A stretch of 64,000 bases of DNA from Candidatus Chisholmbacteria bacterium RIFCSPHIGHO2_01_FULL_52_32 (GTDB lineage Bacteria; Patescibacteriota; Microgenomatia; UBA1400; Chisholmbacteraceae): assembly GCA_001816585.1 (NCBI GenBank), contig MHCJ01000003.1:714681-778680 (forward strand). Direction: 5' to 3'. Under the pieces are notes generated by a model. The model did no database searches. It saw only the letters and a program-made list of their open reading frames with translations, and was not told where the DNA came from. Positions 5,831 to 64,000 of this stretch are shown piece by piece. The stretch's first letter is position 1. Every line of letters starts with the position of its first letter. The position numbers and the translations under genes are program-made.

Positions 5831-5965
5831 TTAAGGGCCAAGGGTTTAGGGCGCAGGGTATGGGGAGAGGAAGTTAGAGGAGGTTAGAGGGGATTAGGGC
5901 CCCAGTGAGATAGGGCGGAGCCCATCTCACGGGGTCAGGGAGAAGTAAAGGGTGGTTAAGGGGGG
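5831..5965 (+). repeat. intergenic G-rich octamer array (TTAGGGC, TTAGAGG units) plus conserved hairpin module, copy 1
   Basis: gggtttagggcgcagggtatgggg...gaagttagaggaggttagaggggattaggg is followed by the hairpin CCCCAGTGAGATAG-GGCGGAGCC-CATCTCACGGGGTCAGGGAGAAG at ~5901-5945. The region is the convergent junction of cca and secF. Confidence 0.8.
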
Positions 5966-10519: not shown

Positions 10520-10680
10520 AGTTAAAAAGTGAAAAGTCCCTCCTTCGCATTTACGGCTTCAAGCAGACTGCTTATTCAGCCGTTTCCTGAGCCGAATGCT
10601 TCGGCGGGCAAGTAAAAGTTAAAAGTCAAGAAATAGAATCTCAAAGTTAATAGTCAAAAGTTCAAGGATCTTTGTTGTTG
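10520..10680 (+). repeat. A-rich octamer repeat array (GTTAAAAGT, GTGAAAAGT, GTCAAAAGT units) with an embedded GCCGAA-TGC-TTCGGC hairpin
   Basis: gttaaaaagtgaaaagtcc ... gtaaaagttaaaagtcaagaaatagaatctcaaagttaatagtcaaaagttcaagg. This is the same unit family seen at 27062-27160 and 58412-58465. Confidence 0.7.
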
Positions 10681-18546: not shown

Positions 18547-19077
18547 ATGAAACTCGTGATCGTATACGGACCTCCGGCAGTCGGAAAGTTGACAGTAGCA
18601 AAGGAATTAGCCGCTTTAACCGGTTACAAACTCTTCCACAATCACCTCACGGTTGACGTAGTAGCATCGCTTTTTGAATTTGGATCTCCTGTGTTTTGGG
18701 ATCAAGTCCGTCTAATGAGGGAACTTCTCTTTGAAGCAGCAGCCAAGAATAACGTGAACATGATTTTTACCTTTGTGTATGCTGCCGGCGAGGACGATAA
18801 AATCATTAACAATTATATCAACATCATTGAAAAGCATAGCGGCGAAGTGTGCTTAGTACAATTGAAAGCCTCAATGGAAGTACTTAAGAAGCGAATAATC
18901 AAGAGGAACAGGACACAATACGAGAAAATGACCAAAACTAACGAACTTGAGAAGTGGGTTGATAAATATAACCTTTTTTCACAAATTCCTGATCGCGAGA
19001 GTTTAATTATTGACAATAGCAGTCTCTCTCCTTCAGAAGTAGCACGACAGATCATCGCGCATTTTCAACTAAAGTAA
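18547..19077 (+). CDS. AAA_33-family P-loop kinase (polynucleotide-kinase / zeta-toxin superfamily-like)
   Basis: Walker A GPPAVGKLT, an acidic residue soon after, and the lid motif KRIIKRNRT (compare RNSKRG in T4 Pnk). 176 aa in a low-GC islet of ~35-40% GC. Confidence 0.5.
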   Translation: MKLVIVYGPPAVGKLTVAKELAALTGYKLFHNHLTVDVVASLFEFGSPVFWDQVRLMRELLFEAAAKNNVNMIFTFVYAAGEDDKIINNYINIIEKHSGEVCLVQLKASMEVLKKRIIKRNRTQYEKMTKTNELEKWVDKYNLFSQIPDRESLIIDNSSLSPSEVARQIIAHFQLK

Positions 19078-21204: not shown

Positions 21205-21270
21205 AGAATGTTAGAGGATTATAGAGGAGATTAGAGGACAGTAGAGGAAATTACCGGAAGGGATGTTAAG
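21205..21270 (+). repeat. octamer array (GTTAGAGG, TTATAGAGG, GATTAGAGG, CAGTAGAGG), copy 2
   Basis: gaatgttagaggattatagaggagattagaggacagtagaggaaattaccggaagggatgttaag, immediately upstream of the comM start. Confidence 0.75.
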
Positions 21271-21286
21271 TGTGATTGGGGGTACA

Positions 21287-21976
21287 TTATTCCAGCGGAG
21301 CTTCTCCGAAGATCCGGACTTCGGTGCCGGGGTTGTCCGCGGAAGCGAACATGCTCCGTTTGCCTTTGAGATCCGGTTTTGCCCATTCATAGATCAAGCC
21401 CGCCTCTTCGATCTTCATGTTGATACAGCCGTGGGACATGGGATGACCGAAGTTTGAGTGCCAGTACGTACCATGAATGCCAAATCCCCGCCAAGAAGGA
21501 ATTTCGGCATTGGAAAAATACATCACGAAGGGAACATTGGGAAGGTAGTAATAGGTCCGGAGGGCCTTTGAACCGCCCTCCATCTTCGTATAGCGAAGTT
21601 TTACCCAGATCCGGAAGATGCCGGTCGGGGTGCGGGCCCATTTTCCTGAAGAGATTAAGAAACTATAGATTAGGCGATCACCCTCATATGCAGAGAGCCG
21701 TTGATTGGTTAAATCCACCTCTATCCGTTTTGGTTCGTCGCTTTCCCCTAATACGGTTGGTTTTGGTTTGATTTCTGCAAGGAGTAAAGGGAGCGGTAAT
21801 GATTGGTTGTTGAATACCGCGGTGGTTTCCTTCGGATCAAATTCTCCGCTTACATCCCTCGGATCAACCGTTGCTTGCGGAGAAAATCGTGCGGAGAGCC
21901 AGTCTGAGGAAAGCAACACTTTCACCAGCAGTAAAACCGTTGTCGCTATCGGGAAAATCCACAATATTCGTTTCAT
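21287..21976 (-). CDS. L,D-transpeptidase (YkuD domain)
   Basis: HGTYWHSNFGHPMSHGCINM catalytic His/Cys motif with an N-terminal TM/signal, 229 aa. Confidence 0.8.
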   Translation of the reverse strand: MKRILWIFPIATTVLLLVKVLLSSDWLSARFSPQATVDPRDVSGEFDPKETTAVFNNQSLPLPLLLAEIKPKPTVLGESDEPKRIEVDLTNQRLSAYEGDRLIYSFLISSGKWARTPTGIFRIWVKLRYTKMEGGSKALRTYYYLPNVPFVMYFSNAEIPSWRGFGIHGTYWHSNFGHPMSHGCINMKIEEAGLIYEWAKPDLKGKRSMFASADNPGTEVRIFGEAPLE

Positions 21977-24267: not shown

Positions 24268-25728
24268 TTAGTTCATTTTTATGTTCATGATAAAGTCGAT
24301 GTTTTCCGCTTGCTCGATGCTTGAGAGCGGCAGGGTTGCCTCGCTGAACATATCTGTTCCCTCTATGTTTTCCCGAAACTTGAGGAGTACCGTACGGGTC
24401 CGGGCTTTTCCTACCAGCTTCAATTTCTTCTGGTTTTCGTCAAGAGTAAGACTTACGACGGCTACTCCTTCCGGAATGTTCGGCAGGAGCACGGCGAGAC
24501 GGGTTTGGGGGAATGTCCGACCGCTTCCAACCTCGACAATTGTCCTTCCATTCCGGTTAAGGCGCTCTGTTTCCTTTATTGCTTCCCCTGTCTCCTGAGG
24601 AAGCGGGGCCAAGGTTAGTTTCTCGGACTCAAGCTTTGCTGCGACACCTCCGAGGAAGACCTGCGTTCCCAGTGCCGCTATGGCAACGGTCGCGGTTACT
24701 CCGGTTGCAATGGCGAAAAGATATTTATTTATCCATTGGTTTTGTTTTACATCAAACGCTTCCTGAAGCTTGGGGGGAAGGAGATTGATCGTGCGGACGT
24801 TTTTGGGCTCTTCTATTTCTTTTTGCGCAAGCGATGATGCCACCGCAAAGCTTAATTCTCTCCCTTTCGGTAAGTTTTCAATCGGGAGCGGACACGGTTT
24901 TACCTCTCGCCCGGATCCTTTCCCTATTTCATCGATAGCTTCTTGGGATGCTCCTTCTCCGCAAACGTAGATCGTCTGGACTTTTTCTTCATCTTGATGT
25001 TTTGTTTCGTAAAAGGCGAGCATTTTTTGGATTGTCTGGATAAGGTACGGCAATCCCGCTTCTCCCTCCTCCCCTGCCAGAGAGACAATTGAACTTGCTT
25101 CAATGAGTTTGCCTTTCGTCAAGGTCAGGACAGCGTGCTCCCGTTGTAACTCGAGAATAACGGCCCGTTTCCCTTCCTTTTCAATCAGACGGACCAATGA
25201 GAGGGCAGTGGTTTCGAATGCAACCGGAGTCAAGTGAGCGGCCTCAAGGGCTGCGGTATATCCGTCAATGATCTCTTTCGCTACCGCAATTAAAAGGATG
25301 TTGATATGGTTTTTCTCCTCGCTTATGATCTTCCAATCCATATACACCTGGTCTGCAGGAACGGGGAGGTAGGTTTCCGCTTCCCACTCCACCGCCTCCG
25401 TCAGTTCATCTATCCGTAATAGCGGCATGGAGAGAATCTTCGTGTAGCATTTGTTCTCCGGGATACCGACGACGACTTCACGCTTATCGATTTTGGCTGC
25501 CTGGAACAATCTGAGAAGGGATTGGGAGAGTTTTTCCCCGTTTTTCACCTCTCCCCCTGTGATGACGGAAGGCTCGAGTCTTTCTTCAGCCAAGCGGGAA
25601 GCCCTCTTCCCCGTTTTATCTAAAAGGAGAATTTGAATTTTTTCTTCTGAGATAATGAGGCTTGGGTAGGTTTTGTGCTTAAGAGCAATCATGGCAGGCA
25701 AAGTTTCCCTTTTGCAAGGGTTCTTCAT
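24268..25728 (-). CDS. pilM: PilM (actin-like ATPase) fused to a PilN-like TM/coiled-coil C-terminal region
   Basis: The N-terminal ~340 aa are a PilM/FtsA-like fold. The C-terminal ~140 aa hold a TM helix (LFAIATGVTATVAIAALGTQVFLGGV) plus a periplasmic segment typical of PilN. Confidence 0.7.
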   Translation of the reverse strand: MKNPCKRETLPAMIALKHKTYPSLIISEEKIQILLLDKTGKRASRLAEERLEPSVITGGEVKNGEKLSQSLLRLFQAAKIDKREVVVGIPENKCYTKILSMPLLRIDELTEAVEWEAETYLPVPADQVYMDWKIISEEKNHINILLIAVAKEIIDGYTAALEAAHLTPVAFETTALSLVRLIEKEGKRAVILELQREHAVLTLTKGKLIEASSIVSLAGEEGEAGLPYLIQTIQKMLAFYETKHQDEEKVQTIYVCGEGASQEAIDEIGKGSGREVKPCPLPIENLPKGRELSFAVASSLAQKEIEEPKNVRTINLLPPKLQEAFDVKQNQWINKYLFAIATGVTATVAIAALGTQVFLGGVAAKLESEKLTLAPLPQETGEAIKETERLNRNGRTIVEVGSGRTFPQTRLAVLLPNIPEGVAVVSLTLDENQKKLKLVGKARTRTVLLKFRENIEGTDMFSEATLPLSSIEQAENIDFIMNIKMN

Positions 25729-25782
25729 TAATTATAGCGTCTTGGGACCGCGTGTATACCCCATTGCGGGAAGCGAGATTTA

Positions 25783-25812
25783 TGAATTATGAATCATGAA
25801 TTATGAATCACG
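25783..25812 (+). repeat. tandem 14-mer (ATGAATTATGAATC, two copies plus a partial) in the pilC-pilM intergenic region
   Basis: tgaattatgaatcatgaattatgaatcacg, read directly from the sequence. Confidence 0.7.
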
Positions 25813-27059: not shown

Positions 27060-27061
27060 GG

Positions 27062-27160
27062 GAATAAAAAGTTAAAAGTTAAGAGTTAAAAGTCTAAAGT
27101 TATTAAATACGAATCAAATAGTTAAAAGTGAAAAGTGAAAAGTAAGATATCAACGTCTCC
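27062..27160 (+). repeat. A-rich octamer array (GTTAAAAGT, TAAGAGT, GTGAAAAGT units), pilB-pilC intergenic
   Basis: aaaaagttaaaagttaagagttaaaagtctaaagttattaaatacgaatcaaatagttaaaagtgaaaagtgaaaagtaag. Confidence 0.75.
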
Positions 27161-40815: not shown

Positions 40816-41622
40816 TCATCTTCCATACGCGCCGTACACCTTCAAACCCTTCCGCCAGACAAACTGAGAAAGTTCAGCAAGAATGAGTACCCATACCACC
40901 ATGATTGCCAATGTGCCTGCCGTCTGTTGAGCATTCAAACGGCCCAGATAGATTTGCATCGGGTAAAAGAGGAAGTACGCCGGAGGCAGCAGGCGAACTA
41001 CGTTGTAGGCAGCGGGAGGAAGGATGTCAAGCGGGAACAAACCGCCCGAGAAGAATTCTATTATTACCATGGAGAGAAATCTCAAGGGCCAGCCGGAATA
41101 CTCCACATACCAGAACGTGACTGAACTTACCAGAAAGCTCAGGAAAAAATAGATCAGCATTGCCAGAATGCCGGCAATAGTAAACGCCAATACCTGCATC
41201 GGTTGATTTTGTATGAATACTGTCGGTTTGAGCAGATAAAAAAGCACGATCAGCTCCCCTATCACGAAGATGAGATTCAATGCCTTATCAGCCAGATCAC
41301 GAGATAACCAGTTGGCAAAATAGTTCACCGGTTTCACCAGGTAGTTATTGAGATCTCCCTTGGCGATTTCGGAAGCAGCATCCACGCTTCGTGATCCAAG
41401 AACAAAGGATCGCAGGATTGACGTCCCTAAAATATAGGTTAAGATCATCGGCTGGTCATAGCCAAACGCCGTTCCCCCTCTTTTGAAGATTGCCACCCAG
41501 AGAAAGTAGACGGCCAAAAGCTGCAGCACCGAGCGCACGCGCCACATGATGAAGTTTAAGCGGTAGACGAAGCTGTCCATCCAGCTTATTTTGGCAATGG
41601 CTATGTACTTCTTCAGCCTCAT
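40816..41622 (-). CDS. ABC-2 family transporter permease
   Basis: 268 aa polytopic. It overlaps the ATPase stop. Confidence 0.6.
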   Translation of the reverse strand: MRLKKYIAIAKISWMDSFVYRLNFIMWRVRSVLQLLAVYFLWVAIFKRGGTAFGYDQPMILTYILGTSILRSFVLGSRSVDAASEIAKGDLNNYLVKPVNYFANWLSRDLADKALNLIFVIGELIVLFYLLKPTVFIQNQPMQVLAFTIAGILAMLIYFFLSFLVSSVTFWYVEYSGWPLRFLSMVIIEFFSGGLFPLDILPPAAYNVVRLLPPAYFLFYPMQIYLGRLNAQQTAGTLAIMVVWVLILAELSQFVWRKGLKVYGAYGR

Positions 41623-42623
41623 TTCGGTTTTTGGAAAGGTTTCATCCTACCGGTGAAGACCTCGCGGATGATCGCTTCAATCGGTGGCTCTTCGATCACT
41701 ACGTCTGCAACAGGGAATTCTTCGAGAAGTTTCGCAGCCTTTTTGGCGGCCTCCGTTCTCGGAACTGTCAACTGTGCTTTCGGAAACTCGTACTCGCGAA
41801 TGTTTCCGAATTCCGCCAATTTCCTCTGATCGATGCTGCTTGAAAATACCACGGTGATGATTTTCTCGCGCGCAAATCGGTTGACAACTTCCTGCAGCTT
41901 CCCGTCATAGAGGATGGTCCCTTCATTGATGATAATGACCCGCTCACACAGCTCCCGTACATCATCCATGTAGTGGCTTGTCAAGATGATGGTCGCCTTG
42001 AATTCCCGATTGTATTCCTTAATGAAATCGCGCATCACCTTTTGCATGACGACATCGAGTCCGATAGTTGGCTCATCCAGGAAGAGGACTTTGGGACTAT
42101 GGAGGAGGGCTGCGATAAGTTCGCATTTCATCCGTTGTCCCAACGATAGTTTTCTTACTTGCGTTTTTAAAATGCCGCCCACATCGAGAAGTCTGACCAA
42201 ACGCTTGAGCGTCTGTTGAAATTGTCCATCGGGGACCTCATAGATTTCCTTATTCAAGGTGAATGTTTCCATCGGCGGCAAGTCCCACCACAGCTGATTC
42301 TTCTGGCCCATGACCAGTCCGAATTGTTTTTGAAATTCCGGCCGCCTCTCCCATGGAATGAACCCGAGCACCCTGGCTTCACCGGAAGTCGGATAGAGAA
42401 GTCCTGACAGGCATTTCAGCGTCGTTGTCTTTCCGGCCCCGTTCGGGCCGATAAAACCCACGAGTTCCCCTTCTCTAATCGTGAAGTCAATATTATTTAT
42501 TGCCTGTACCTCTTCGTATTTCCGTGCGATGAGGGATTTGAAAGACCCGACGAGGCCCGTTTCCTTCTGCAAAACTTTGAAGTACTTTTTCAAATGGCGC
42601 ACTTCAATCGCGTTTTTCCCCAT
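41619..42623 (-). CDS. ABC transporter ATP-binding protein
   Basis: Walker A GPNGAGKTTT, signature LSLGQRMKC and Walker B LFLDEPT, 334 aa. Confidence 0.85.
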   Translation of the reverse strand: MGKNAIEVRHLKKYFKVLQKETGLVGSFKSLIARKYEEVQAINNIDFTIREGELVGFIGPNGAGKTTTLKCLSGLLYPTSGEARVLGFIPWERRPEFQKQFGLVMGQKNQLWWDLPPMETFTLNKEIYEVPDGQFQQTLKRLVRLLDVGGILKTQVRKLSLGQRMKCELIAALLHSPKVLFLDEPTIGLDVVMQKVMRDFIKEYNREFKATIILTSHYMDDVRELCERVIIINEGTILYDGKLQEVVNRFAREKIITVVFSSSIDQRKLAEFGNIREYEFPKAQLTVPRTEAAKKAAKLLEEFPVADVVIEEPPIEAIIREVFTGRMKPFQKPK

Positions 42624-42671: not shown

Positions 42672-42830
42672 AGACAGAAAGGAGGGTTAGAGGAGCTTTG
42701 AAGGTTTGGGGGGGTTCCCCAGTGAGATAGGCAAGCCATCTCACGGGGTCAGAGAGAAGTTAAGGGTGATTAAGGGTAGTTAAGGGTCAATAAGGGTGAC
42801 TAAGGGTGTGGAGGAAGGATTCCACAAAGG
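42672..42830 (+). repeat. repeat element copy 3: partial octamer units, conserved hairpin (42717-42751), then five phased TAAGGGT units
   Basis: ccccagtgagatag-gcaagc-catctcacggggtcagagagaag, then ttaagggtgattaagggtagttaagggtcaataagggtgactaagggtgtggaggaagg. The unit spacing is ~10-11 bp. Confidence 0.85.
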
Positions 42831-42836
42831 GGGGGC

Positions 42837-43112
42837 TCACCACACGGCTTTTCTGAGTGGTTTTCCCGGACGGAAGTTGACGACGCGGTGGGATTTAATG
42901 GTTGTCCGGCGCTCCTCTTGGCCGAAGGGAACAATTGTTTTGTCCGCAACTTTTGAGAGGTAAAACGTGCCGAATCCCGAAAGCACCACTCGTTCCCCTT
43001 TCTTGATCGCTTTGGACATTTCCTCAAGCAATACATCAATTGACTCAGCCGCAGCTTTCTTTGTCAAATGGCCTTTCTTGGAAACGATGTCGACGAACTC
43101 TTTTTTCGTCAT
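42837..43112 (-). CDS. hup: DNA-binding protein HU
   Basis: 91 aa with the HU fold signature (GFGTF...R..R.GRNP-like arm region). Confidence 0.85.
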   Translation of the reverse strand: MTKKEFVDIVSKKGHLTKKAAAESIDVLLEEMSKAIKKGERVVLSGFGTFYLSKVADKTIVPFGQEERRTTIKSHRVVNFRPGKPLRKAVW

Positions 43113-43261
43113 GGCGCTCCTGACAGATTAGTAATAAAAAACTAAAAGAATACGGAGAACAGTAATAATTTTCTCAAACAGAAATCATGAGTATAGTATT
43201 CACTTTTAACCTATACATCAAGCTAAACTGCAAGTCAATGGGGGAATGGGAAGAGCATTAG

Positions 43262-43400
43262 CGTTTAGCGTCTAGGGTTTAGGGTATAGGGTATAGAGAG
43301 AGGAGGAGAGAGGGGGAGGTTAGAGGATATTAGAGGAGGGAGGTTAAGGGTCGATAAGGGTGACTAAGGGTGTGGAGAGAAGGGTTCCGCAAAACGGGGT
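43262..43400 (+). repeat. repeat element copy 4: GGGTTTAGGGTATAGGGTATAG, then TTAGAGG units, then a ~75-nt block homologous to 42760-42836
   Basis: ...ttaagggtcgataagggtgactaagggtgtggagagaagggttccgcaaaacgggg closely matches ttaagggtcaataagggtgactaagggtgtggaggaaggattccacaaaggggggg in copy 3. Confidence 0.85.
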
Positions 43401-50114: not shown

Positions 50115-50220
50115 AGGGAAGAAAATTAGAGGATATTAAAGGATATTAGAGGAACTTGGAGGAAGTTAGAGCCCCAGTGAGATAGTACTTCGTACATCTC
50201 ACGGGGTCAGAGAGAAGATA
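50115..50220 (+). repeat. repeat element copy 5: TTAGAGG-type units plus conserved hairpin (50171-50207)
   Basis: agggaagaaaattagaggatattaaaggatattagaggaacttggaggaagttagag, then ccccagtgagatag-tacttcgta-catctcacggggtcagagagaag. The region is a convergent junction. Confidence 0.85.
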
Positions 50221-51942
50221 TCAGAACGGCGAGAGGAGTCTTAAGCTTTGTTGCGGATAGCGGAAGAAGGAAACGATATCTCTTAAGGTGAGCGTCCCGT
50301 CACTGTTGAAATCCAAGGGGAGCAGACGCTTGAACTCAACCGTTGTCGTTTCTTGGGAAAGATACGCGTACATTTGGCGAGGAAGATAGTACGGTTTCGT
50401 AAGGACGAAGCGATAGACTTTTTCCGGGATGACATCGTGGAGCTCCGAAACCGTGCCGACTCCGTTTTTTATTGAAAATGGTTCAATCTTTTTAACAAGT
50501 TTTCCCTCGTCGTAGATCAAAAGCGTGAAATCGCCGGCGCTGGTTTTGGGCTTTATCCAGAGATCGGCTTTGAGGATTATGCTGGGGGGCGGGAGAATAG
50601 TGATCTTATGCTCCCGGGTCTCTCCGAACGGTTTTCCTTTATGGAGAAGTTCGATTGTCAGAGTCAAATTGCCAGTTTCCTTGGGCGTTCTTATCCTCAC
50701 CTCTACTTCTCCTATGCGGAAGGGGTCGGTTTCCGGAATGTGCCCGACGAATATGTTTGCGGTCTTTTGGGAATTTTCTACCTTGAGTGAAAAATCATCC
50801 CTGTTCCAGATCGATTGGCCGATGTTTTTCAGCCTGATGGTAAATGTGTAATCTGAATCGACGACCAACTCTTCCGGAAGCGATGGCGGGAGAAAGATCC
50901 CCGAATGAACTTGCGGAGGTTCACCGTTCGTTTTGGGAATCGCTTTTACTTCGTCGTATTGTTGGTATTTCTCACTATCTTCCTTCATCCAGGAAAAATG
51001 ATCAAAGGGTTCCTCCGGGTATCGGAGAACAAAGGGGGTAACGGCGATAATTTGGGAGTCCAACCAGATTGATTGATAAGCCTGTTTGAACAAGGCTGCC
51101 ACGGTGTCTGCGGAATGGGCGGAGGGGTCTTTAACCTTTCCTTCCCGGTGGATCCAGCCTGTTTCCGTGATAATAACCGGTATATCGCTCTTTAGTCCGT
51201 ATCTTTTCAGCCATCCGATTTCCCATCTATACCCTTGGAGGCTGGTTTTTCCCTTCTGATTGAGCGAGCCTGAAAAGTTCGGATTGGGATAGGCATGGGA
51301 AGTCCATCCGTCAAACAAGGAAAAGACTGTTGGATCTTCCTGCCGCATCTTCAGCCAATATGCCTCCGGTGTCATGGTTTCCGGTCCGTTTGTGGCGGCG
51401 GCATCAAAGCCAGCCGGAAGAACGAAGAAATCTTCCGAGCGTTTTTTCAGAGCATCGTGAAAGAAGCGAGTGAAGCGGGCGTATTCTTCCGGATCAAGAC
51501 TTCCGCCCCACTCTTTTGCATGGTTCGGTTCATTGAACAGGATCACATAACGGTTTTTTACGACCCAATTGAGGGAGGAAAGAAAACTTACCCAACTGTC
51601 AATATCTTCTTCCCTTGGTTTTGCCCAGCCGCCGTCTTGAGCCTTGGTTGCAAGCCTCAGAAGCGGGATAAGTTTTAATTCCCGCATCCGATCGAAAATC
51701 CTCTGCCATTTTTCAACATTCCTGTCGTCTTCACGAATAACAATGGTCACATAGCCCCAGCCTCCGCCCGCACTGTTGACAAGGGCGGCGGCATCTTCCA
51801 GATCCTCCTCACTGATGATGTGAATGCCGAAGCGGTTGTTCGGAGTTGACCTTGGGTCAACGATGCCTAACACAGGCCTGACCGTCGCAGCGAAGCAGGC
51901 CGCGGTGAAGAGGGCACAGAGCAGAGATTTCATCGGACTCAT
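50221..51942 (-). CDS. secreted glycoside hydrolase, clan GH-A TIM-barrel type, with C-terminal beta-rich domains
   Basis: Signal peptide, FNEPNH (acid/base) and IITETGW (nucleophile) motifs, 573 aa. Confidence 0.5.
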   Translation of the reverse strand: MSPMKSLLCALFTAACFAATVRPVLGIVDPRSTPNNRFGIHIISEEDLEDAAALVNSAGGGWGYVTIVIREDDRNVEKWQRIFDRMRELKLIPLLRLATKAQDGGWAKPREEDIDSWVSFLSSLNWVVKNRYVILFNEPNHAKEWGGSLDPEEYARFTRFFHDALKKRSEDFFVLPAGFDAAATNGPETMTPEAYWLKMRQEDPTVFSLFDGWTSHAYPNPNFSGSLNQKGKTSLQGYRWEIGWLKRYGLKSDIPVIITETGWIHREGKVKDPSAHSADTVAALFKQAYQSIWLDSQIIAVTPFVLRYPEEPFDHFSWMKEDSEKYQQYDEVKAIPKTNGEPPQVHSGIFLPPSLPEELVVDSDYTFTIRLKNIGQSIWNRDDFSLKVENSQKTANIFVGHIPETDPFRIGEVEVRIRTPKETGNLTLTIELLHKGKPFGETREHKITILPPPSIILKADLWIKPKTSAGDFTLLIYDEGKLVKKIEPFSIKNGVGTVSELHDVIPEKVYRFVLTKPYYLPRQMYAYLSQETTTVEFKRLLPLDFNSDGTLTLRDIVSFFRYPQQSLRLLSPF

Positions 51943-51959
51943 CCGATCATTGTAACACT

Positions 51960-52070
51960 AGAAGAGAAAGGGTTGTGGGTAGAGGGTAGAGAGGGGAGGT
52001 TAGAGGATATTAGAGGAAGCTAAGGGTAAATTAAGGGTGAGTAAAGGGAGGAGAAATAGGGTAGAGGCGG
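51960..52070 (+). repeat. repeat element copy 6 (GGTAGAGG, GTTAGAGG, TAAGGGT units)
   Basis: gggtagagggtagagaggggaggttagaggatattagaggaagctaagggtaaattaagggtgagtaaagggaggagaaatagggtagagg. Confidence 0.8.
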
Positions 52071-52075
52071 TTTAT

Positions 52076-52534
52076 TCAGACAAGCGTTTGGCTGAGGCCT
52101 TCGGTCCAGGACCTTATCAGCTCGGTGTTTTTCTCCTGATTGAAGTAAAATCCATCGATCTTTAGCGATTCTCCTGACTTTGTGCCTTTGACGCTGGTTA
52201 CAAATTCCTCAAGATGATTGACGGCGCCGCAGAAATGGGTATAGGAGGAGTCTCCGAGCCCGAAAACGGCAAACTTTTTCCCCTCAAACGTTGTTCCCTG
52301 GCACTTCTTGATCAGATCAATGAAGTCAGCGTGCGGGAGTCCTTCCTGACCTTCATAATCCCAGCTTGGGGAACCAAGGATTACCAGATCGTACTGACCC
52401 AATTCCGGGGGGGAAGTTTGGGCAGCTTGTTTTACCACGACGGTATGGGTCTTCCCTGTCAGGACCTCCTGAATACTTTGGCTTGCGATCTGCGTGCCTC
52501 CGGAGTTGGTGGCGTAGACGATGAGGATATTCAT
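52076..52534 (-). CDS. flavodoxin
   Basis: ILIVYATNSGGTQ FMN-binding loop, 152 aa. Confidence 0.75.
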   Translation of the reverse strand: MNILIVYATNSGGTQIASQSIQEVLTGKTHTVVVKQAAQTSPPELGQYDLVILGSPSWDYEGQEGLPHADFIDLIKKCQGTTFEGKKFAVFGLGDSSYTHFCGAVNHLEEFVTSVKGTKSGESLKIDGFYFNQEKNTELIRSWTEGLSQTLV

Positions 52535-55370: not shown

Positions 55371-55883
55371 TTAAATCTTTCTTTCCTCTTTTATCACCGG
55401 TGGATTGGGTGCAGGGTTCTTTAGGTTTTCTTTCTTTCCCTTGTCCTGTTTCGCCGGAGCTTCGGAGGATAAATCTTTTTTCGAGTCCGGCTTTGATTCT
55501 TTGTCTTTCCTGGCTTGTTCTTGTCTTTTCTTCTCGATCAGCTCTATTCGTACCAGCATGGCATTGTCTCCCCGCCGTTCTCCAACACGGATGATTCTTG
55601 TAAAGCCGCTCACCCTGTCCCTGAACCTTGGCCCAAGTTCATCGACGATTTTATTCACTGCCTTTTTATTCTGTAGAAATGCGGCAATGGTGCGGCGGAC
55701 ATGGAGTGTCCCTTTCTTTCCGCTGGCAATGAGACTATCGGCCAAGCCTTTGATTGCCTTGGCTTTGCTTTCCGTTGTTTGAATTTCCTCCTTCATCACT
55801 AAGCTTGTGATGAGGTTTTTAAACAACGATTTTCTCTGTTTTATATCGCGGCTGAATTTCTTTCCGAATACTCTATGGCGCAT
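55371..55883 (-). CDS. rplQ: 50S ribosomal protein L17 with ~55-aa K/E-rich C-terminal extension
   Basis: The true start is MRHRVFGKKFSRD. The track start at 55916 reads through the upstream octamer repeat (MPKPYTLNPIP is encoded by ggaatagggtttagggtatagggtttaggcat). Confidence 0.85.
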   Translation of the reverse strand: MRHRVFGKKFSRDIKQRKSLFKNLITSLVMKEEIQTTESKAKAIKGLADSLIASGKKGTLHVRRTIAAFLQNKKAVNKIVDELGPRFRDRVSGFTRIIRVGERRGDNAMLVRIELIEKKRQEQARKDKESKPDSKKDLSSEAPAKQDKGKKENLKNPAPNPPVIKEERKI

Positions 55884-55925
55884 AGGAATAGGGTTTAGGG
55901 TATAGGGTTTAGGCATTAGGGGGGA
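55884..55925 (+). repeat. repeat element copy 7 (GGGTTTAGGGTATAGGGTTTAGG) directly abutting the rplQ start codon
   Basis: ggaatagggtttagggtatagggtttaggcattagggggg. No Shine-Dalgarno lies between the repeat and the ATG. Confidence 0.8.
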
Positions 55926-55953
55926 GAGGTTTTCCCTCGAATCCTGTCTTCCC

Positions 55954-56868
55954 TTACTCCCTCAATGAAACATCCTTCTTCTTTAAGGCTTTTCGGATGA
56001 TCTCTACCGATTTCTCGCCCAGATTTTTTACCTTTGCGATGTCTTTCTCCGGAGCCTCAACCAGGTCAGCCACCGTTCTGTATCCTCCTTTTCGCAGGGC
56101 GTTTGCAATCCGGGTTGACAAGTCAAGCTCTTCAACCGTCAATTTGTATATTTCACTAGCGGCGACGTCTTCAACTTGCGGTTTTTCTGCTTTAACTTTG
56201 GGTTCGTAGACTTGCCGGAAGTAGGCCTCCAATAACTTTGCGGTCTGGTGGAGCGCTTCGGTCGGCTTCAGTGTCCCGTCCGTTATGACCTTTAAAATCA
56301 ACCTGTCTAAATCCGTGCGTCCGCCTACACGGGTCGCTTCCACGTGATATGACACTTGGAGAACCGGCGTGAACGTTGCATCGATCGGAATCACACCGAT
56401 TTGGTTTGATTTCCTTTCTTCTGCGGACGAATATCCCGTGCCCCGCTCCACTTGGAGCTCGGCTTCGAGACCTACCTTTTTGTTTGCCAAGGTTCCCAAT
56501 ATTTGATCTTTATTGATAATGCTCACCATTGGCGGTGCTTTGATTTGTGAGGCTTTGATTTCTCCCGGACCCTGCGCTTCCAGACGGAGGGTTTGGGGTT
56601 CGTCCCCGTCGTAGCGAACGCGAATCCTCTTGAGATTGAGGATGAATTCCACCACGTCCTCGCTCATCCCTTTCAGTGTGGAGAATTGATGACGAATACC
56701 TTTGATTTTGACCTGTGTGATAGCGGCCCCGGTAAGGCTATCTAACATGGCCCGGCGAAGGGCATTTCCTAACGTATGTCCATATCCTTGCTCCAATGGT
56801 TCGAATATGAATGTGGCGGTATTTTCTTCTTTCTCTTCTTGGGTAATGGTGAAGGATGGCATGATCAT
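55954..56868 (-). CDS. rpoA: DNA-directed RNA polymerase subunit alpha
   Basis: 304 aa with N-terminal dimerisation and C-terminal alphaCTD HhH domains. An AAGGAG SD lies 7 nt upstream. Confidence 0.9.
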   Translation of the reverse strand: MIMPSFTITQEEKEENTATFIFEPLEQGYGHTLGNALRRAMLDSLTGAAITQVKIKGIRHQFSTLKGMSEDVVEFILNLKRIRVRYDGDEPQTLRLEAQGPGEIKASQIKAPPMVSIINKDQILGTLANKKVGLEAELQVERGTGYSSAEERKSNQIGVIPIDATFTPVLQVSYHVEATRVGGRTDLDRLILKVITDGTLKPTEALHQTAKLLEAYFRQVYEPKVKAEKPQVEDVAASEIYKLTVEELDLSTRIANALRKGGYRTVADLVEAPEKDIAKVKNLGEKSVEIIRKALKKKDVSLRE

Positions 56869-57992: not shown

Positions 57993-58409
57993 TTATTCCT
58001 TGGTCGGTGTCTCATGTTTCGTCAGTTCTTCTTTCTTCATTGCGCCGATGGTTTTCCTCTTCCCCCGTTTGGTTCTTGCATTGGTACGGGTTCGCTGGCC
58101 ATGGACAGGCAGACCCATGGCATGACGCAATCCGCGGTACGTCCCGATTCTCTTTAATCGTTCAATATTCTCTCGAATTTGTTTGCGTAGGTTTCCTTCC
58201 GTGTTTATCTTGTCTATCGCCCGTTGCAACCGAGCCACTTCTTCCGTAGCCAGATCTTTCGCCCGTTTATCCGCATTGACGTTGGCTTCCGCAAGAATTT
58301 GCTTCACATTCCGCCGTCCCACTCCGAAAATGTACGTAAGTGCGACTTCGGTTCGCTTCTGTTCCGGTATATCGATTCCTGCAATGCGTGGCATATTCCC
58401 TTCGGTCAA
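57993..58409 (-). CDS. rpsM: 30S ribosomal protein S13
   Basis: [25 protein letters not shown]. Confidence 0.9.
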
Positions 58410-58411
58410 GT

Positions 58412-58465
58412 TACAAATTTAAAGTTTAAAGTTAAAAGTTTTGAATTTTGTATTTTAAACTTTGA
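58412..58465 (+). repeat. A-rich octamer array (TTTAAAGTTTAAAGTTAAAAGT) between rpmJ and rpsM
   Basis: gttacaaatttaaagtttaaagttaaaagttttgaattttgtattttaaac. Confidence 0.7.
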
Positions 58466-58579
58466 TTATCCCTGGCGCTGTTTATGGCGCGGGTTTTCAC
58501 AAACCACATACACTTTTCCGTGACGGCGAATGATCTTACATTTATTACATCTGATTTTCACGCTTGACTTTACTTTCAT
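58466..58579 (-). CDS. rpmJ: 50S ribosomal protein L36 (below ORF-track length cutoff)
   Basis: Hand translation gives [37 protein letters not shown], the canonical Zn-ribbon L36, in the expected infA-rpmJ-rpsM order. Confidence 0.85.
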
Positions 58580-62731: not shown

Positions 62732-63088
62732 TTAAAACTTCAATCCTTCTTTTCTGGCTGACTCCGCAAGCCTTTTTATCCTCCCATGATACCGGTACGG
62801 ACCCCGGTCAAAAACAACCGCTTTGATACCTTTTTTTATTGCCTTTTTTGCTACGGCCTGTCCGATAAGATCCGCTTTGGCCGTTTTTTGCTGTTTACTA
62901 TCCGTTGGCTTTACATCCGTTTCGTTTGCCGAAACAAGAGTGATCCCTTGTTCATCGTCGATGATTTGGGCATACGTATGTTTGTTCGAACGGAACACCG
63001 AAAGGCGGGGTCTTACCTTCGTCCCAAATACCTTGGCTCTTATCCTTTTTTTCCGCCCCCTGGTTGGTGATCTATTGATGTGGCTCAT
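62732..63088 (-). CDS. rplR: 50S ribosomal protein L18
   Basis: RPRLSVFRSNKHTYAQIIDD. Confidence 0.9.
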   Translation of the reverse strand: MSHINRSPTRGRKKRIRAKVFGTKVRPRLSVFRSNKHTYAQIIDDEQGITLVSANETDVKPTDSKQQKTAKADLIGQAVAKKAIKKGIKAVVFDRGPYRYHGRIKRLAESARKEGLKF

Positions 63089-63648
63089 GCTCCTCCGGTT
63101 GCTGCAGTACCTACTTTGGCTACCTTTCCTGGTTTTCGACGGACAATTTCGTTCTTATATCTCACTCCCTTTCCTTTGTATGGTTCGGGCTTTTTCAAGC
63201 TCCTCAACTTGGCTGCGGCAAGACCAACTGCCTCTTTATCTATTCCCTTTACTATGACATCCCGTTCGCCTTCAACCTCAAATTCTATCCCTACTTCGGG
63301 TTCAACAACGATCGGGTGGGAGAATCCCAAATTTAAGGTAAGGCGGTTACCTTCTTTCTTCACTCGGTAGCCCGTGCCGACAAGCTCCAGCCGCTTCTCA
63401 TATCCTTCTACTACTCCTTTGACAGCATTCGCCAGGAGGGCGCGGGTGAGGCCGTGGAGGGCTTTCGTCTTATCATCATTGCGGGTTCTCTTGACCTCAA
63501 TCATCCCCTTTGTTACCTCCACTTTAATATGCGAAAATGTCGGTGAGCGAAGTTCGCCTTTCGGTCCTTTTATTACCACCGCATCATTCCCGACTGCGGC
63601 GGTGACATCTTCTGGGATTTGGATTGGCTGTTTTCCTATTCTAGACAT
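63085..63648 (-). CDS. rplF: 50S ribosomal protein L6
   Basis: MSRIGKQPIQIPEDV ... two L6 repeats, 187 aa. Confidence 0.9.
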   Translation of the reverse strand: MSRIGKQPIQIPEDVTAAVGNDAVVIKGPKGELRSPTFSHIKVEVTKGMIEVKRTRNDDKTKALHGLTRALLANAVKGVVEGYEKRLELVGTGYRVKKEGNRLTLNLGFSHPIVVEPEVGIEFEVEGERDVIVKGIDKEAVGLAAAKLRSLKKPEPYKGKGVRYKNEIVRRKPGKVAKVGTAATGGA

Positions 63649-63679
63649 AGAGAGATAGGGTATAGGGTATAGGAAATAG
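63649..63679 (+). repeat. repeat element copy 8 (AGAGAGATAGGGTATAGGGTATAGG) filling the whole rpsH-rplF spacer
   Basis: It lies between the rpsH stop (63680) and the rplF ATG (63648), and no Shine-Dalgarno is present. Confidence 0.8.
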
Positions 63680-64000
63680 TTACCATACGCGCAATAGCAT
63701 TTCTCCCCCTAACTTTTTGCTTCTGGCGTCCTTATCCGTCATGATCCCGCGGCTGGTTGAGATGATTGTTATCCCATATCCGCCGAGGGTTTTGGGAATA
63801 TTTTTTGCCTTGACGTATATTTTTCTTCCCGGTGTTGAGACGTATTCAATCCGATCAATCGCGGCCTGACCGTTCGTATAGAGGAGGTTTAGGACGATCA
63901 TTTTCCGTGGTTTACGATTCTCCACTCCCAGGTGCCCAACGTATGCCTCTTTCTCTAAGATTTTCCCCAATGTCTCTCCTATACGGGAATGGGGAATTTC
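63680..64000 (-). CDS. rpsH: 30S ribosomal protein S8, C-terminal part; the start lies beyond the window end
   Basis: ...GGYGITIISTSRGIMTDKDARSKKLGGEMLLRVW is the S8 C-terminus. A full-length S8 (~130 aa) needs a start upstream of position 64000. Confidence 0.85.
   Translation of the reverse strand, partial: EIPHSRIGETLGKILEKEAYVGHLGVENRKPRKMIVLNLLYTNGQAAIDRIEYVSTPGRKIYVKAKNIPKTLGGYGITIISTSRGIMTDKDARSKKLGGEMLLRVW

Follow-up and report, generated by a model that had tools for sequence, protein, structure and literature searches.

The subject of this analysis was a pair of simple-sequence repeats in a 64,000-nucleotide (nt) stretch of DNA, hereafter the window, from Candidatus Chisholmbacteria, an uncultured groundwater bacterium of the Microgenomates within the candidate phyla radiation (CPR, or Patescibacteria). 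Both repeats lie in a ribosomal-protein gene cluster, one directly before rplQ (encoding L17) and the other directly before rplF (L6), and an earlier note on this DNA had placed them at the position of the ribosome-binding site (RBS) of these genes. The sequences were found where the note had put them, but the unit is not the octamer that had been described, since Tandem Repeats Finder (TRF) returned a period of 7, with the heptamer TAGGGTW on the plus strand, and thereby ruled out an octamer periodicity. The genes and features at the two junctions are as follows.

52-64 kb, minus strand throughout: gene cluster rpsH-rplF-rplR-rpsE-rplO-secY-adk-map-infA-rpmJ-rpsM-rpsK-rpsD-rpoA-rplQ
55371..55883, minus strand: true coding sequence of rplQ (L17), 170 amino acids (aa), start ATG at 55883, beginning MRHRVFGKKF; homologues share this ATG
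55884..55888, minus strand: pyrimidine linker UUCCU, 5 nt, from the last CCCUA to the rplQ AUG
55889..55921, minus strand: heptamer array before rplQ, TRF period 7, score 45, ~4.7 copies
55884..55916, minus strand: spurious N-terminal extension of rplQ, MPKPYTLNPIP, 11 codons read through the repeat (open reading frame, ORF, 55371-55916)
55922..55953, minus strand: non-repeat distal part of the rpoA-rplQ spacer, G-rich and, in the alignment, unconserved between species
55954..56868, minus strand: rpoA, with 3' end ...UUGAGGGAGUAA (55954-55965) carrying a Shine-Dalgarno (SD)-like GAGGGAG
63085..63648, minus strand: rplF (L6), start at 63648, beginning MSRIGKQPI
63649..63679, minus strand: rpsH-rplF spacer, made of array and CUCUCU linker, with zero G on the messenger RNA (mRNA)
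63655..63673, minus strand: heptamer array before rplF, TRF period 7, ATAGGGT x2.7, 100% matches, ending 7 nt before the ATG
63680..64000, minus strand: 3' part of rpsH (S8), ending ...RVW*

Ahead of rplQ the sense (minus) strand reads ...cccccctaatgCCTAAACCCTATACCCTAAACCCTAttcct-ATG, and the array appears on the mRNA as CCCUAAU GCCUAAA CCCUAUA CCCUAAA CCCUA, the TRF consensus of the plus-strand unit TAGGGTW being TAGGGTT x4.7. Array and linker together make up the ATG-proximal ~38 nt of the 70-nt rpoA-rplQ spacer. At the second junction the whole 31-nt spacer reads ctatttCCTATACCCTATACCCTATctctct-ATG on the sense strand, with CCUAUA CCCUAUA CCCUAU as the array on the mRNA. The rplF spacer is thus array and linker throughout, and at rplQ the array fills only the ATG-proximal part. 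The mRNA string that had been quoted corresponds to the rplF leader, except that its first unit is CCU and not CCC.

Neither rplQ nor rplF has a recognisable SD sequence. When the 68 genes of the window were searched for an SD core, taken as at least 4 nt of AGGAGGT with its end 4-13 nt upstream of the start, none was present before these two, and positions -30 to -1 contained no G at all. Such G-free leaders were confined to rplQ, rplF and pilC among the 68 genes, the mean being 6.8 G per 30 nt. The SDs attributed to rpoA (aaaaggagacaaATG) and hup (gtcaggagcgccATG; 42837-43112, minus strand) are also there. The contrast that had been drawn with normal genes, however, is not supported: an SD core was found in only 15 of the 68 genes, so that absence of an SD is the rule in this genome and no anomaly, and rplF was SD-less in every relative examined, with repeats or without them. 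The ribosomal-protein cluster was the richer part in SDs. It is extremely improbable that the repeat is itself an alternative RBS, pairing with a segment of 16S rRNA other than the anti-SD. Its distance of 5-7 nt from the AUG at several genes is indeed SD-like, but canonical GGAG or AGGAG sequences at neighbouring genes indicate a standard anti-SD, and unrelated heptamers hold the same place in relatives.

The repeat also misleads gene prediction. As had been noted, the ORF track over-extends rplQ by 11 codons when compared with the starts of homologues, and the same error is found in public gene calls (loci L006-L016), in which L17 has 181 aa and begins at an ATG inside the repeat, while homologues place the start 11 codons downstream. 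This upstream in-frame ATG is absent in two relatives, the sister species L001 (the same relative as L141) and L142. In practical terms, the arrays cause systematic start-codon errors in public annotation, here an 11-residue false N-terminus of L17. The other end of this protein is a K/E/P-rich C-terminal tail of ~50 residues. Both true start codons were seen to lie inside a degenerate repeat unit with a 1-nt register slip, CCTATGC versus CCTATAC at rplQ (55881-55890) and CTATGTC versus CTATACC at rplF (63644-63652), and these two cases hint that the arrays may have grown by duplication of start-proximal sequence.

The feature is real and non-random, and the two arrays are individual instances of a kind of repeat that takes up intergenic space throughout this genome and in other bacterial groups. 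Counting non-redundant arrays with a TRF score of at least 36, the window holds 23 tandem arrays, against ~2.6 expected from random sequence of first-order Markov composition (Markov-1). The excess is most pronounced in period-7/14 arrays (7 versus 0.13 expected) and period-10/20 arrays (5 versus 0.43 expected). With a single exception they lie between genes, in more than 10 spacers of the window, and further arrays of each kind, including a fourth copy of the hairpin element described below, are present in the 7.4 kb past the left edge of the window. Allowing at most one mismatch, TAGGGTWTAGGG matched at 9 places, every one on the plus strand, against 0.33 expected, and none of 100 shuffled sequences reached 9. 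The arrays outside the rplQ and rplF junctions are the following.

43258..43296, minus strand: TAGGGTW heptamers in a non-ribosomal setting, located past the RNase Y gene, ~150 nt ahead of the hup ATG and directly 5' of a TTGACT -35-like hexamer
51969..52006, minus strand: heptamers of the related form AGGGTAG, ahead of gene 50221-51942, which has no Pfam match
~5840: TAGGGTW heptamer between convergent genes
27060..27153, minus strand: AAAAGTT heptamers (~11 copies) that take up the pilB-pilC spacer as far as ~7 nt from the pilC ATG
25780..25810, minus strand: TTATGAA heptamers, x4, in the pilC-pilM/N spacer of the type IV pilus operon
58410..58465, minus strand: rpmJ-rpsM spacer, with TTTAAAG / TTTTGAA heptamers (conserved in relatives L136 and L139) and then, ahead of the rpsM ATG at 58394, an SD-like GAAGGGA
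10613..10662, minus strand: degenerate TAAAAGT heptamers in another intergenic spacer
21211-21253, 42760-42808, 43320-43372, 50119-50171, 52000-52048 and 5866-5897: period-10 arrays TTAGAGGANN / TTAAGGGTNN

This distribution disposes of the proposal that the repeats belong specifically to the ribosomal-protein operon, as the heptamer also occurs ~150 nt upstream of hup, in a 3' region between convergent genes and ahead of a gene that is not ribosomal, and other heptamers and decamers occupy the pil spacers and many more.

Within the species, the 12 other assemblies (99.5-100% identical to the window) showed no difference in the rplQ spacer, and the 3 that extend to rplF showed none in the spacer there. 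This identity across independent assemblies rules out an assembly artefact. The 8 assemblies that are not identical to the window differ by single-nucleotide polymorphisms, one single-base indel and one scaffold gap, all outside the arrays. A further junction of the same species, the rpsZ-rpsH spacer just past the window edge, has the form AACCCTATACCC-hairpin-CTATATCCTATTCTTATCTT-ATG. Related genomes carry repeats before rplQ as well, and their leaders read as follows.

L001, rplQ leader: ...GGCTAAACCCTATTCAT-ATG (RpoA 81%; coding DNA ~72% identical)
L142, rplQ leader: CCCTAGTGCCTAAACCCTATTTGT-ATG (L17 85%)
L139, rplQ leader: CTAAACCCTAATACCCTAGTAT-ATG (RpoA 70%)

Between species, the ATG-proximal end of the rplQ leader was conserved and its length had changed in whole units. 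The only block that could be aligned across the rplQ spacers of the window and two other species was CCTAAACCCTATT-x-T-ATG (CCTAAACCCTATTxT-ATG), and a fourth species has a heptamer leader before rplQ similar to that of the window. The window leader equals that of L142 plus exactly 14 nt, or two heptamers (ATACCCTAAACCCT), and L001 has a hairpin-containing insertion at the place of these two extra heptamers. L001 also carries CTAAACCCTAAACCCTA + 5 nt + ATG before both rpsM and rpsH, and lacks the repeat before rplF. A 5-nt spacing from CCCTA to the ATG was found at rplQ, rpsM and rpsH of L001, at rplQ of L142 and at rplQ of the window. Comparison of orthologous leaders had been put forward in the earlier note as the means of refuting a specific translational role, which was to be held unlikely if close relatives lacked the repeat and had ordinary SDs instead. 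The outcome was mixed, with the nearest relatives retaining the repeat at rplQ but not at rplF. In relatives that lack it, with RpoA identities of 70-73%, no ordinary SD took the place of the repeat: L003, L005 and L137 have neither repeats nor SD before rplQ, and the same is true before rplF in L003 and L005 (L137 ends short). The rplF SD is absent in L001, L003, L005 and L138. In more distant Microgenomates, with L17 identities of 61-67%, an SD-like sequence was found at rplQ. There the rplQ ATG mostly overlaps the rpoA stop codon (...GGGGAGAAAA-ATGA) and is preceded by GGGGAG or GGAGAG, GGGGAG standing 7-8 nt before the ATG. In the window, the GAGGGAG at the rpoA stop is now ~70 nt from the rplQ AUG, and the rpoA-rplQ spacer of Chisholmbacteria looks like an insertion that would have broken an ancestral coupled, SD-assisted junction.

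What is conserved is the period and the base composition of the arrays, and not the unit sequence. Heptamers at the same junctions in relatives differ (AACATCA, AATCTTA, AAATTTT and TAAATCT), and in L138 AACATNA runs to the rplP ATG, AATCTTA runs to the rpsM ATG, and a degenerate array precedes rplQ. Taken over the window and five related genomes, the ribosomal-protein clusters contain 13 period-7 arrays, all of them intergenic and of differing units, and the sense strands of these arrays together hold 10 G versus 60 C.

A scan of species-representative genomes for CTAWACCCTAWACCCTA returned at least 118 stretches, and CCCTAWA-type stretches were present in Bacteroidota, many Patescibacteria, Acidobacteriota, Omnitrophota and others. 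Among the matches listed, 840 kb of sequence held 268 period-7 and 59 period-14 arrays, and at most 55 of any other period. Of 120 internal arrays among these matches, 35 are followed within 40 nt by the start of an ORF of at least 80 aa when the C-rich strand is read as sense (14 of them within 6 nt), compared with 9 where the G-rich strand is sense. For asymmetric heptamer arrays adjoining gene starts, again among the matches listed, the sense strand was C-rich in 42 and G-rich in 6. The downstream ORFs in this set are real genes, encoding SecY (Liptonbacteria), L16 (Saccharibacteria), S5 (Acidobacteriota), MutL, DnaX, KdsA, CutC, GS-III and others. Some cross-phylum arrays form the arms of hairpins and are followed by T-runs.

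The explanation that we lean towards, and to which we give slightly better than an even chance on the strength of the sequences, is that these are slippage-born repeats kept in the orientation that gives G-poor mRNA, with SD-independent initiation at rplQ and rplF and with no regulator specific to ribosomal proteins. Period-7 and period-10 arrays would expand in intergenic spacers throughout the lineage, most likely by replication slippage in whole units, and would persist almost only where the G-rich strand is antisense, leaving an mRNA segment of C, U and A only. The G-poor orientation would permit an array to reach the start codon without bringing SD-like motifs, G-quadruplexes (G4), stable G-containing helices or R-loops into the transcript. 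Both rplQ and rplF would be translated without an SD, like most genes of this genome, and the pyrimidine/A-rich leader probably serves as a standby or bS1-type landing site, with help from upstream-cistron ribosomes that terminate 31 or 70 nt away. Loss of the anti-SD has been reported only in a subgroup of Parcubacteria, and most CPR bacteria are reported to possess bS1 (PMC9297842), which makes bS1-assisted initiation or reinitiation plausible. At rplQ, a repeat-containing insertion may have parted the gene from its ancestral ATGA overlap with rpoA and from a GGGGAG-type SD, and conservation of the ATG-proximal unit suggests that it has since then been part of a constrained initiation region.

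Several observations weigh against this explanation. Array copy number did not vary among the assemblies of the species, so that slippage is deduced from differences between species only. Predicted opening energies over -20 to +12 were unexceptional, with pilC ranking 5-6, rplQ 15-23 and rplF 36-45 of 68, and a small predicted hairpin encloses the rplF AUG. Despite its G-free leader the rplF start is not unusually accessible, since pairing is possible between the C-rich units and the G-rich coding sequence that flanks them, and the idea of an unstructured landing pad, judged by opening energies, gave a mixed result and was unsupported for rplF. A sequence-specific ligand would likewise be compatible with the retention of the rplQ-proximal unit in three species and with the 5-nt spacing fixed at five sites. 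Lastly, all arrays in ~71 kb share one chromosomal orientation, and a CCCTAAA array in L198 keeps it even though the closest gene begins 68 nt away and is encoded on the opposite strand; array orientation could follow replication rather than transcription.

A sequence-specific ligand would make the arrays dedicated cis-regulatory sites, where a trans-acting factor (bS1, a cold-shock or KH protein, a free ribosomal protein or a small RNA) reads CCCUAWA and co-ordinates the translation of a set of genes, as has been proposed for the TAACTGA repeats of Beggiatoaceae. We regard this as unlikely. It would account for the way in which three species have kept the CCTAAACCCTATT block ahead of rplQ although their spacers otherwise diverged, and for CCCTA lying exactly 5 nt from the ATG at rplQ in those three species and at rpsM and rpsH in L001. 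It also agrees with the location of 3 of 20 array-preceded genes from other phyla (among the matches listed) in the ribosomal-protein/secY cluster, and with the over-representation of COG category J reported by MacGregor (PMC4679880). However, the motif is also found in 3' regions between convergent genes and ahead of a probable promoter, unrelated heptamers occupy the same junctions in relatives, the rplF array is missing from the nearest other species, the genes downstream of arrays across phyla are functionally miscellaneous, and the proposal comes without a candidate trans-acting factor. A structured regulatory RNA was not apparent either: no Rfam family reached its gathering score and, up to E=5, nothing was matched at rplQ or rplF, and the minimum free energies of the 120-nt leaders were no better than those of shuffled sequences (z = +0.40 and +1.03). 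A dedicated regulatory role for the arrays is not supported. What survives of the suggestion that the repeats are initiation or regulatory elements is that they lie inside the initiation regions of two genuine SD-less cistrons and that the rplQ-proximal unit is conserved, whereas specificity for the operon, sequence specificity and a structured RNA are not supported.

The uniform orientation raises the alternative of a role or constraint at the level of DNA, by way of antisense G4 or i-motif formation, R-loop avoidance or a replication-linked strand preference, with proximity to start codons being incidental to short spacers. The G-rich strand of every array in the window is the plus strand, on which GGG tracts are located at 55891, 55898 and 55905 in the rplQ region, along with a G6 run at 55919. 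The geometry resembles that of G4-forming GGGNATC repeats, in which the G-rich strand is antisense and lies <50 bp upstream of ORFs, and the single chromosomal orientation over ~71 kb, including one array in a divergent spacer, points the same way. Nevertheless this alternative seems improbable, as the fourth G tract at rplQ requires an 11-nt loop, rplF has only two GGG tracts, and A/T-only heptamers (AACTTTA, AAATTTT) at equivalent positions cannot form G4. The bias of 42 versus 6 among the matches listed also exceeds ordinary gene-strand bias.

The arrays might instead be signals for the fate of the RNA, either as C-rich, G-poor tracts resembling Rho-utilisation sites or as RNase E/Y processing sites that uncouple cistrons. 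Their C-rich and G-free composition over 32-33 nt would suit such a function, arrays flank conserved hairpins at gene 3' ends, and the window contains an RNase Y gene. Even so, this is very unlikely: many arrays are nearly C-less, and a terminator upstream of rplQ or rplF would be costly inside an essential operon. Scans of the spacers for consensus promoters and terminators gave no more matches than shuffled sequences, and none at the rplQ or rplF sites.

No new regulatory system is revealed by these arrays, similar repeats having been described since 2015. The nearest likeness is to the TAACTGA heptamers of marine Beggiatoaceae, which stand immediately upstream of start codons and over the RBS position, with SDs being rare there, in a genome of which only ~25% of the genes have one; they include sites internal to ribosomal-protein operons (S1, L3, S4, S21, fusA), and bS1, Csp and CsrA were named as candidate binders, translational control being suggested with no function established (MacGregor 2015, PMC4679880). 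In the same manner, the arrays described here end 5 nt (rplQ), 7 nt (rplF) and ~7 nt (pilC) before the ATG in one orientation, and the SD is missing from the rplQ and rplF repeat spacers. They differ in their units (CCCTAWA, AACTTTW, TTCATAA and others) and in belonging to another phylum (CPR). Moreover, related heptamers are rarely repeated in BOGUAY, whereas here many heptamers and decamers coexist and share the G-poverty of the sense strand.

A second likeness is to the heptamer simple-sequence repeats (SSRs) GGGNATC and GGGGAYT of Xanthomonas and Nostoc, which are strongly non-coding and lie mostly between aligned ORFs. In GGGNATC repeats the G-rich strand is antisense and <50 bp upstream of an ORF, four units are preferred, and G4 folding has been demonstrated with the function unresolved (Rehm et al. 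2015, PMC4692102). The arrays of the window share the G3 tract in the heptamer and the antisense position of the G-rich strand <50 bp upstream of an ORF. Unlike the GGGNATC type, there are only 2 G tracts at rplF, and A/T-only heptamers fill the same positional role.

More generally, heptanucleotide units were described as the commonest class of long SSR, with sporadic phylogenetic spread and a proposed origin by slippage (Mrazek et al. 2007, cited in PMC4679880). In Nostoc, TTTTGAA heptamers lie near start codons or promoters (preprint 10.1101/2022.06.06.494920). TTTTGAA itself occurs in the window, at 58439-58465. The short tandemly repeated repetitive (STRR) heptamers of cyanobacteria are of a kindred heptanucleotide class, and the present arrays resemble long SSRs and STRRs in their head-to-tail 7-nt units, excess over composition, dispersal and non-coding bias. 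In the literature searched, no report was found of heptamer arrays in CPR/Patescibacteria or of CCCTAWA arrays shared across phyla. Phase-variable SSRs of 5' untranslated regions, such as the AGAT repeats of Moraxella uspA2 and those of Haemophilus contingency loci, are similar in placing a tandem repeat between upstream signals and the start codon. The arrays here differ from these in showing no copy-number variation in the 12 other assemblies and in preceding housekeeping genes, not surface antigens; phase variation was rejected as a candidate, given the lack of polymorphism within the species. They also differ from the autoregulatory r-leader RNAs of Rfam, with neither a covariance-model match nor a stable structure at rplQ or rplF. 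A/U-rich, G-poor enhancers bound by S1, for example the T7 gene 10 'epsilon' UUAACUUUAA, are likewise G-free leaders rich in pyrimidines and A, and translation can begin on them with little SD or none. UUAACUUUAA is contained literally in the AACTTTA arrays of this genome. Unlike the repeats found here, such S1-bound enhancers are not arranged in tandem, and they usually work alongside an SD.

What is new relative to the known kinds is the phylum, the unit, the conservation of the ATG-proximal unit between species, the occupation of the same junctions by different units, and a quantified strand bias across phyla. The arrays indicate that essential, highly expressed ribosomal-protein cistrons of a CPR bacterium can have their entire RBS region replaced by a telomere-like simple-sequence repeat. 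Because the unit is conserved, the same junctions recur in other phyla and the strand bias is 42:6, the heptamer arrays offer a natural system, open to experiment, in which to study SD-independent initiation and the constraints on repeats inside transcripts. A more far-reaching idea, which we hold to be quite unlikely, is that G-free heptamer arrays are a convergent module for SD-independent ribosome recruitment or standby, recognised by bS1 or another binder of single-stranded RNA, and placed at uncoupled ribosomal-protein/secY junctions (rpsH, rplF, rpsM, rplP, rplQ, secY and rpsE) in CPR phyla, Acidobacteriota and Beggiatoaceae.

Several further observations were made in passing. Exact cores of the period-10 repeat TTAGAGGANN numbered 11 against 2.0 expected, and 10 of the 11 were on the plus strand. 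On the sense strand of genes the decamers read UCCUCUAA, which is anti-SD-like, and on the antisense strand they are SD-like. A hairpin of the form CCCCAGTGAGAT-(loop)-ATCTCACGGGGTCAG was present three times in the window (5900-5938, 42717-42752 and 50172-50210), against 0 expected, with a fourth copy just outside it (L198 ~21560-21600). The copies are at gene 3' ends and always have TTAGAGGANN decamers on one side and TTAAGGGTNN on the other. Hairpin and decamers together could be one composite element of ~100-130 bp that sits between genes, or else a terminator lacking a T-run. A divergent spacer in L198 (18665-18765) combines TCAATGT/TTAATAT heptamers with a CCCTAAA array. In the rplE-rpsZ spacer of the same species, just beyond position 64000 (L007 2468-2560), GAGTCGAAGGA is repeated about 3 times (gcagagtcgaagga ... 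gcggagtcgaaggaatcgaaggagtc) before rpsZ; this repeat is purine-rich and SD-like in the sense orientation, unlike the other arrays.

The rpmJ-rpsM spacer gave a weak full-length match on the minus strand (58362-58467) to RF00140, Alpha_RBS, the S4-binding leader of the alpha operon, with 18.6 bits (gathering score 38) and E = 0.81; no other match came from the Rfam search by E-value. The spacer is positionally correct for this leader and also holds the AACTTTA/TTCAAAA heptamers that are conserved in L136 and L139. Elsewhere in the window, a TATAAT-like hexamer stands 2-8 nt before the annotated ATG of five genes (24268-25728, 18547-19077, 50221-51942, 41619-42623 and 52076-52534; for example cgcTATAATtaATG), which suggests leaderless or very short-leader mRNAs, or starts that have been set wrongly.

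In Saccharibacteria, locus L063 (198-230, 2918-2945 and 3355-3464) has CCCTAAA x4.7 ending 5 nt before rplP and TTAAATC-type (TAAATCT-type) heptamers before rpsH, and between its rpsH and rplF two heptamer arrays in inverted orientation form a hairpin, the 3' arm of which ends 5 nt before the rplF ATG. Loci L082 (Acidobacteriota), L029 (Levyibacteria) and L019 (Parcubacteria) each hold 5-10 period-7 arrays per 8 kb, of many units and often as inverted pairs, that is, as hairpins (for example TGAGGAC... / ...CTCAGTC), and heptamer-rich genomes seem to be a cross-phylum phenomenon.

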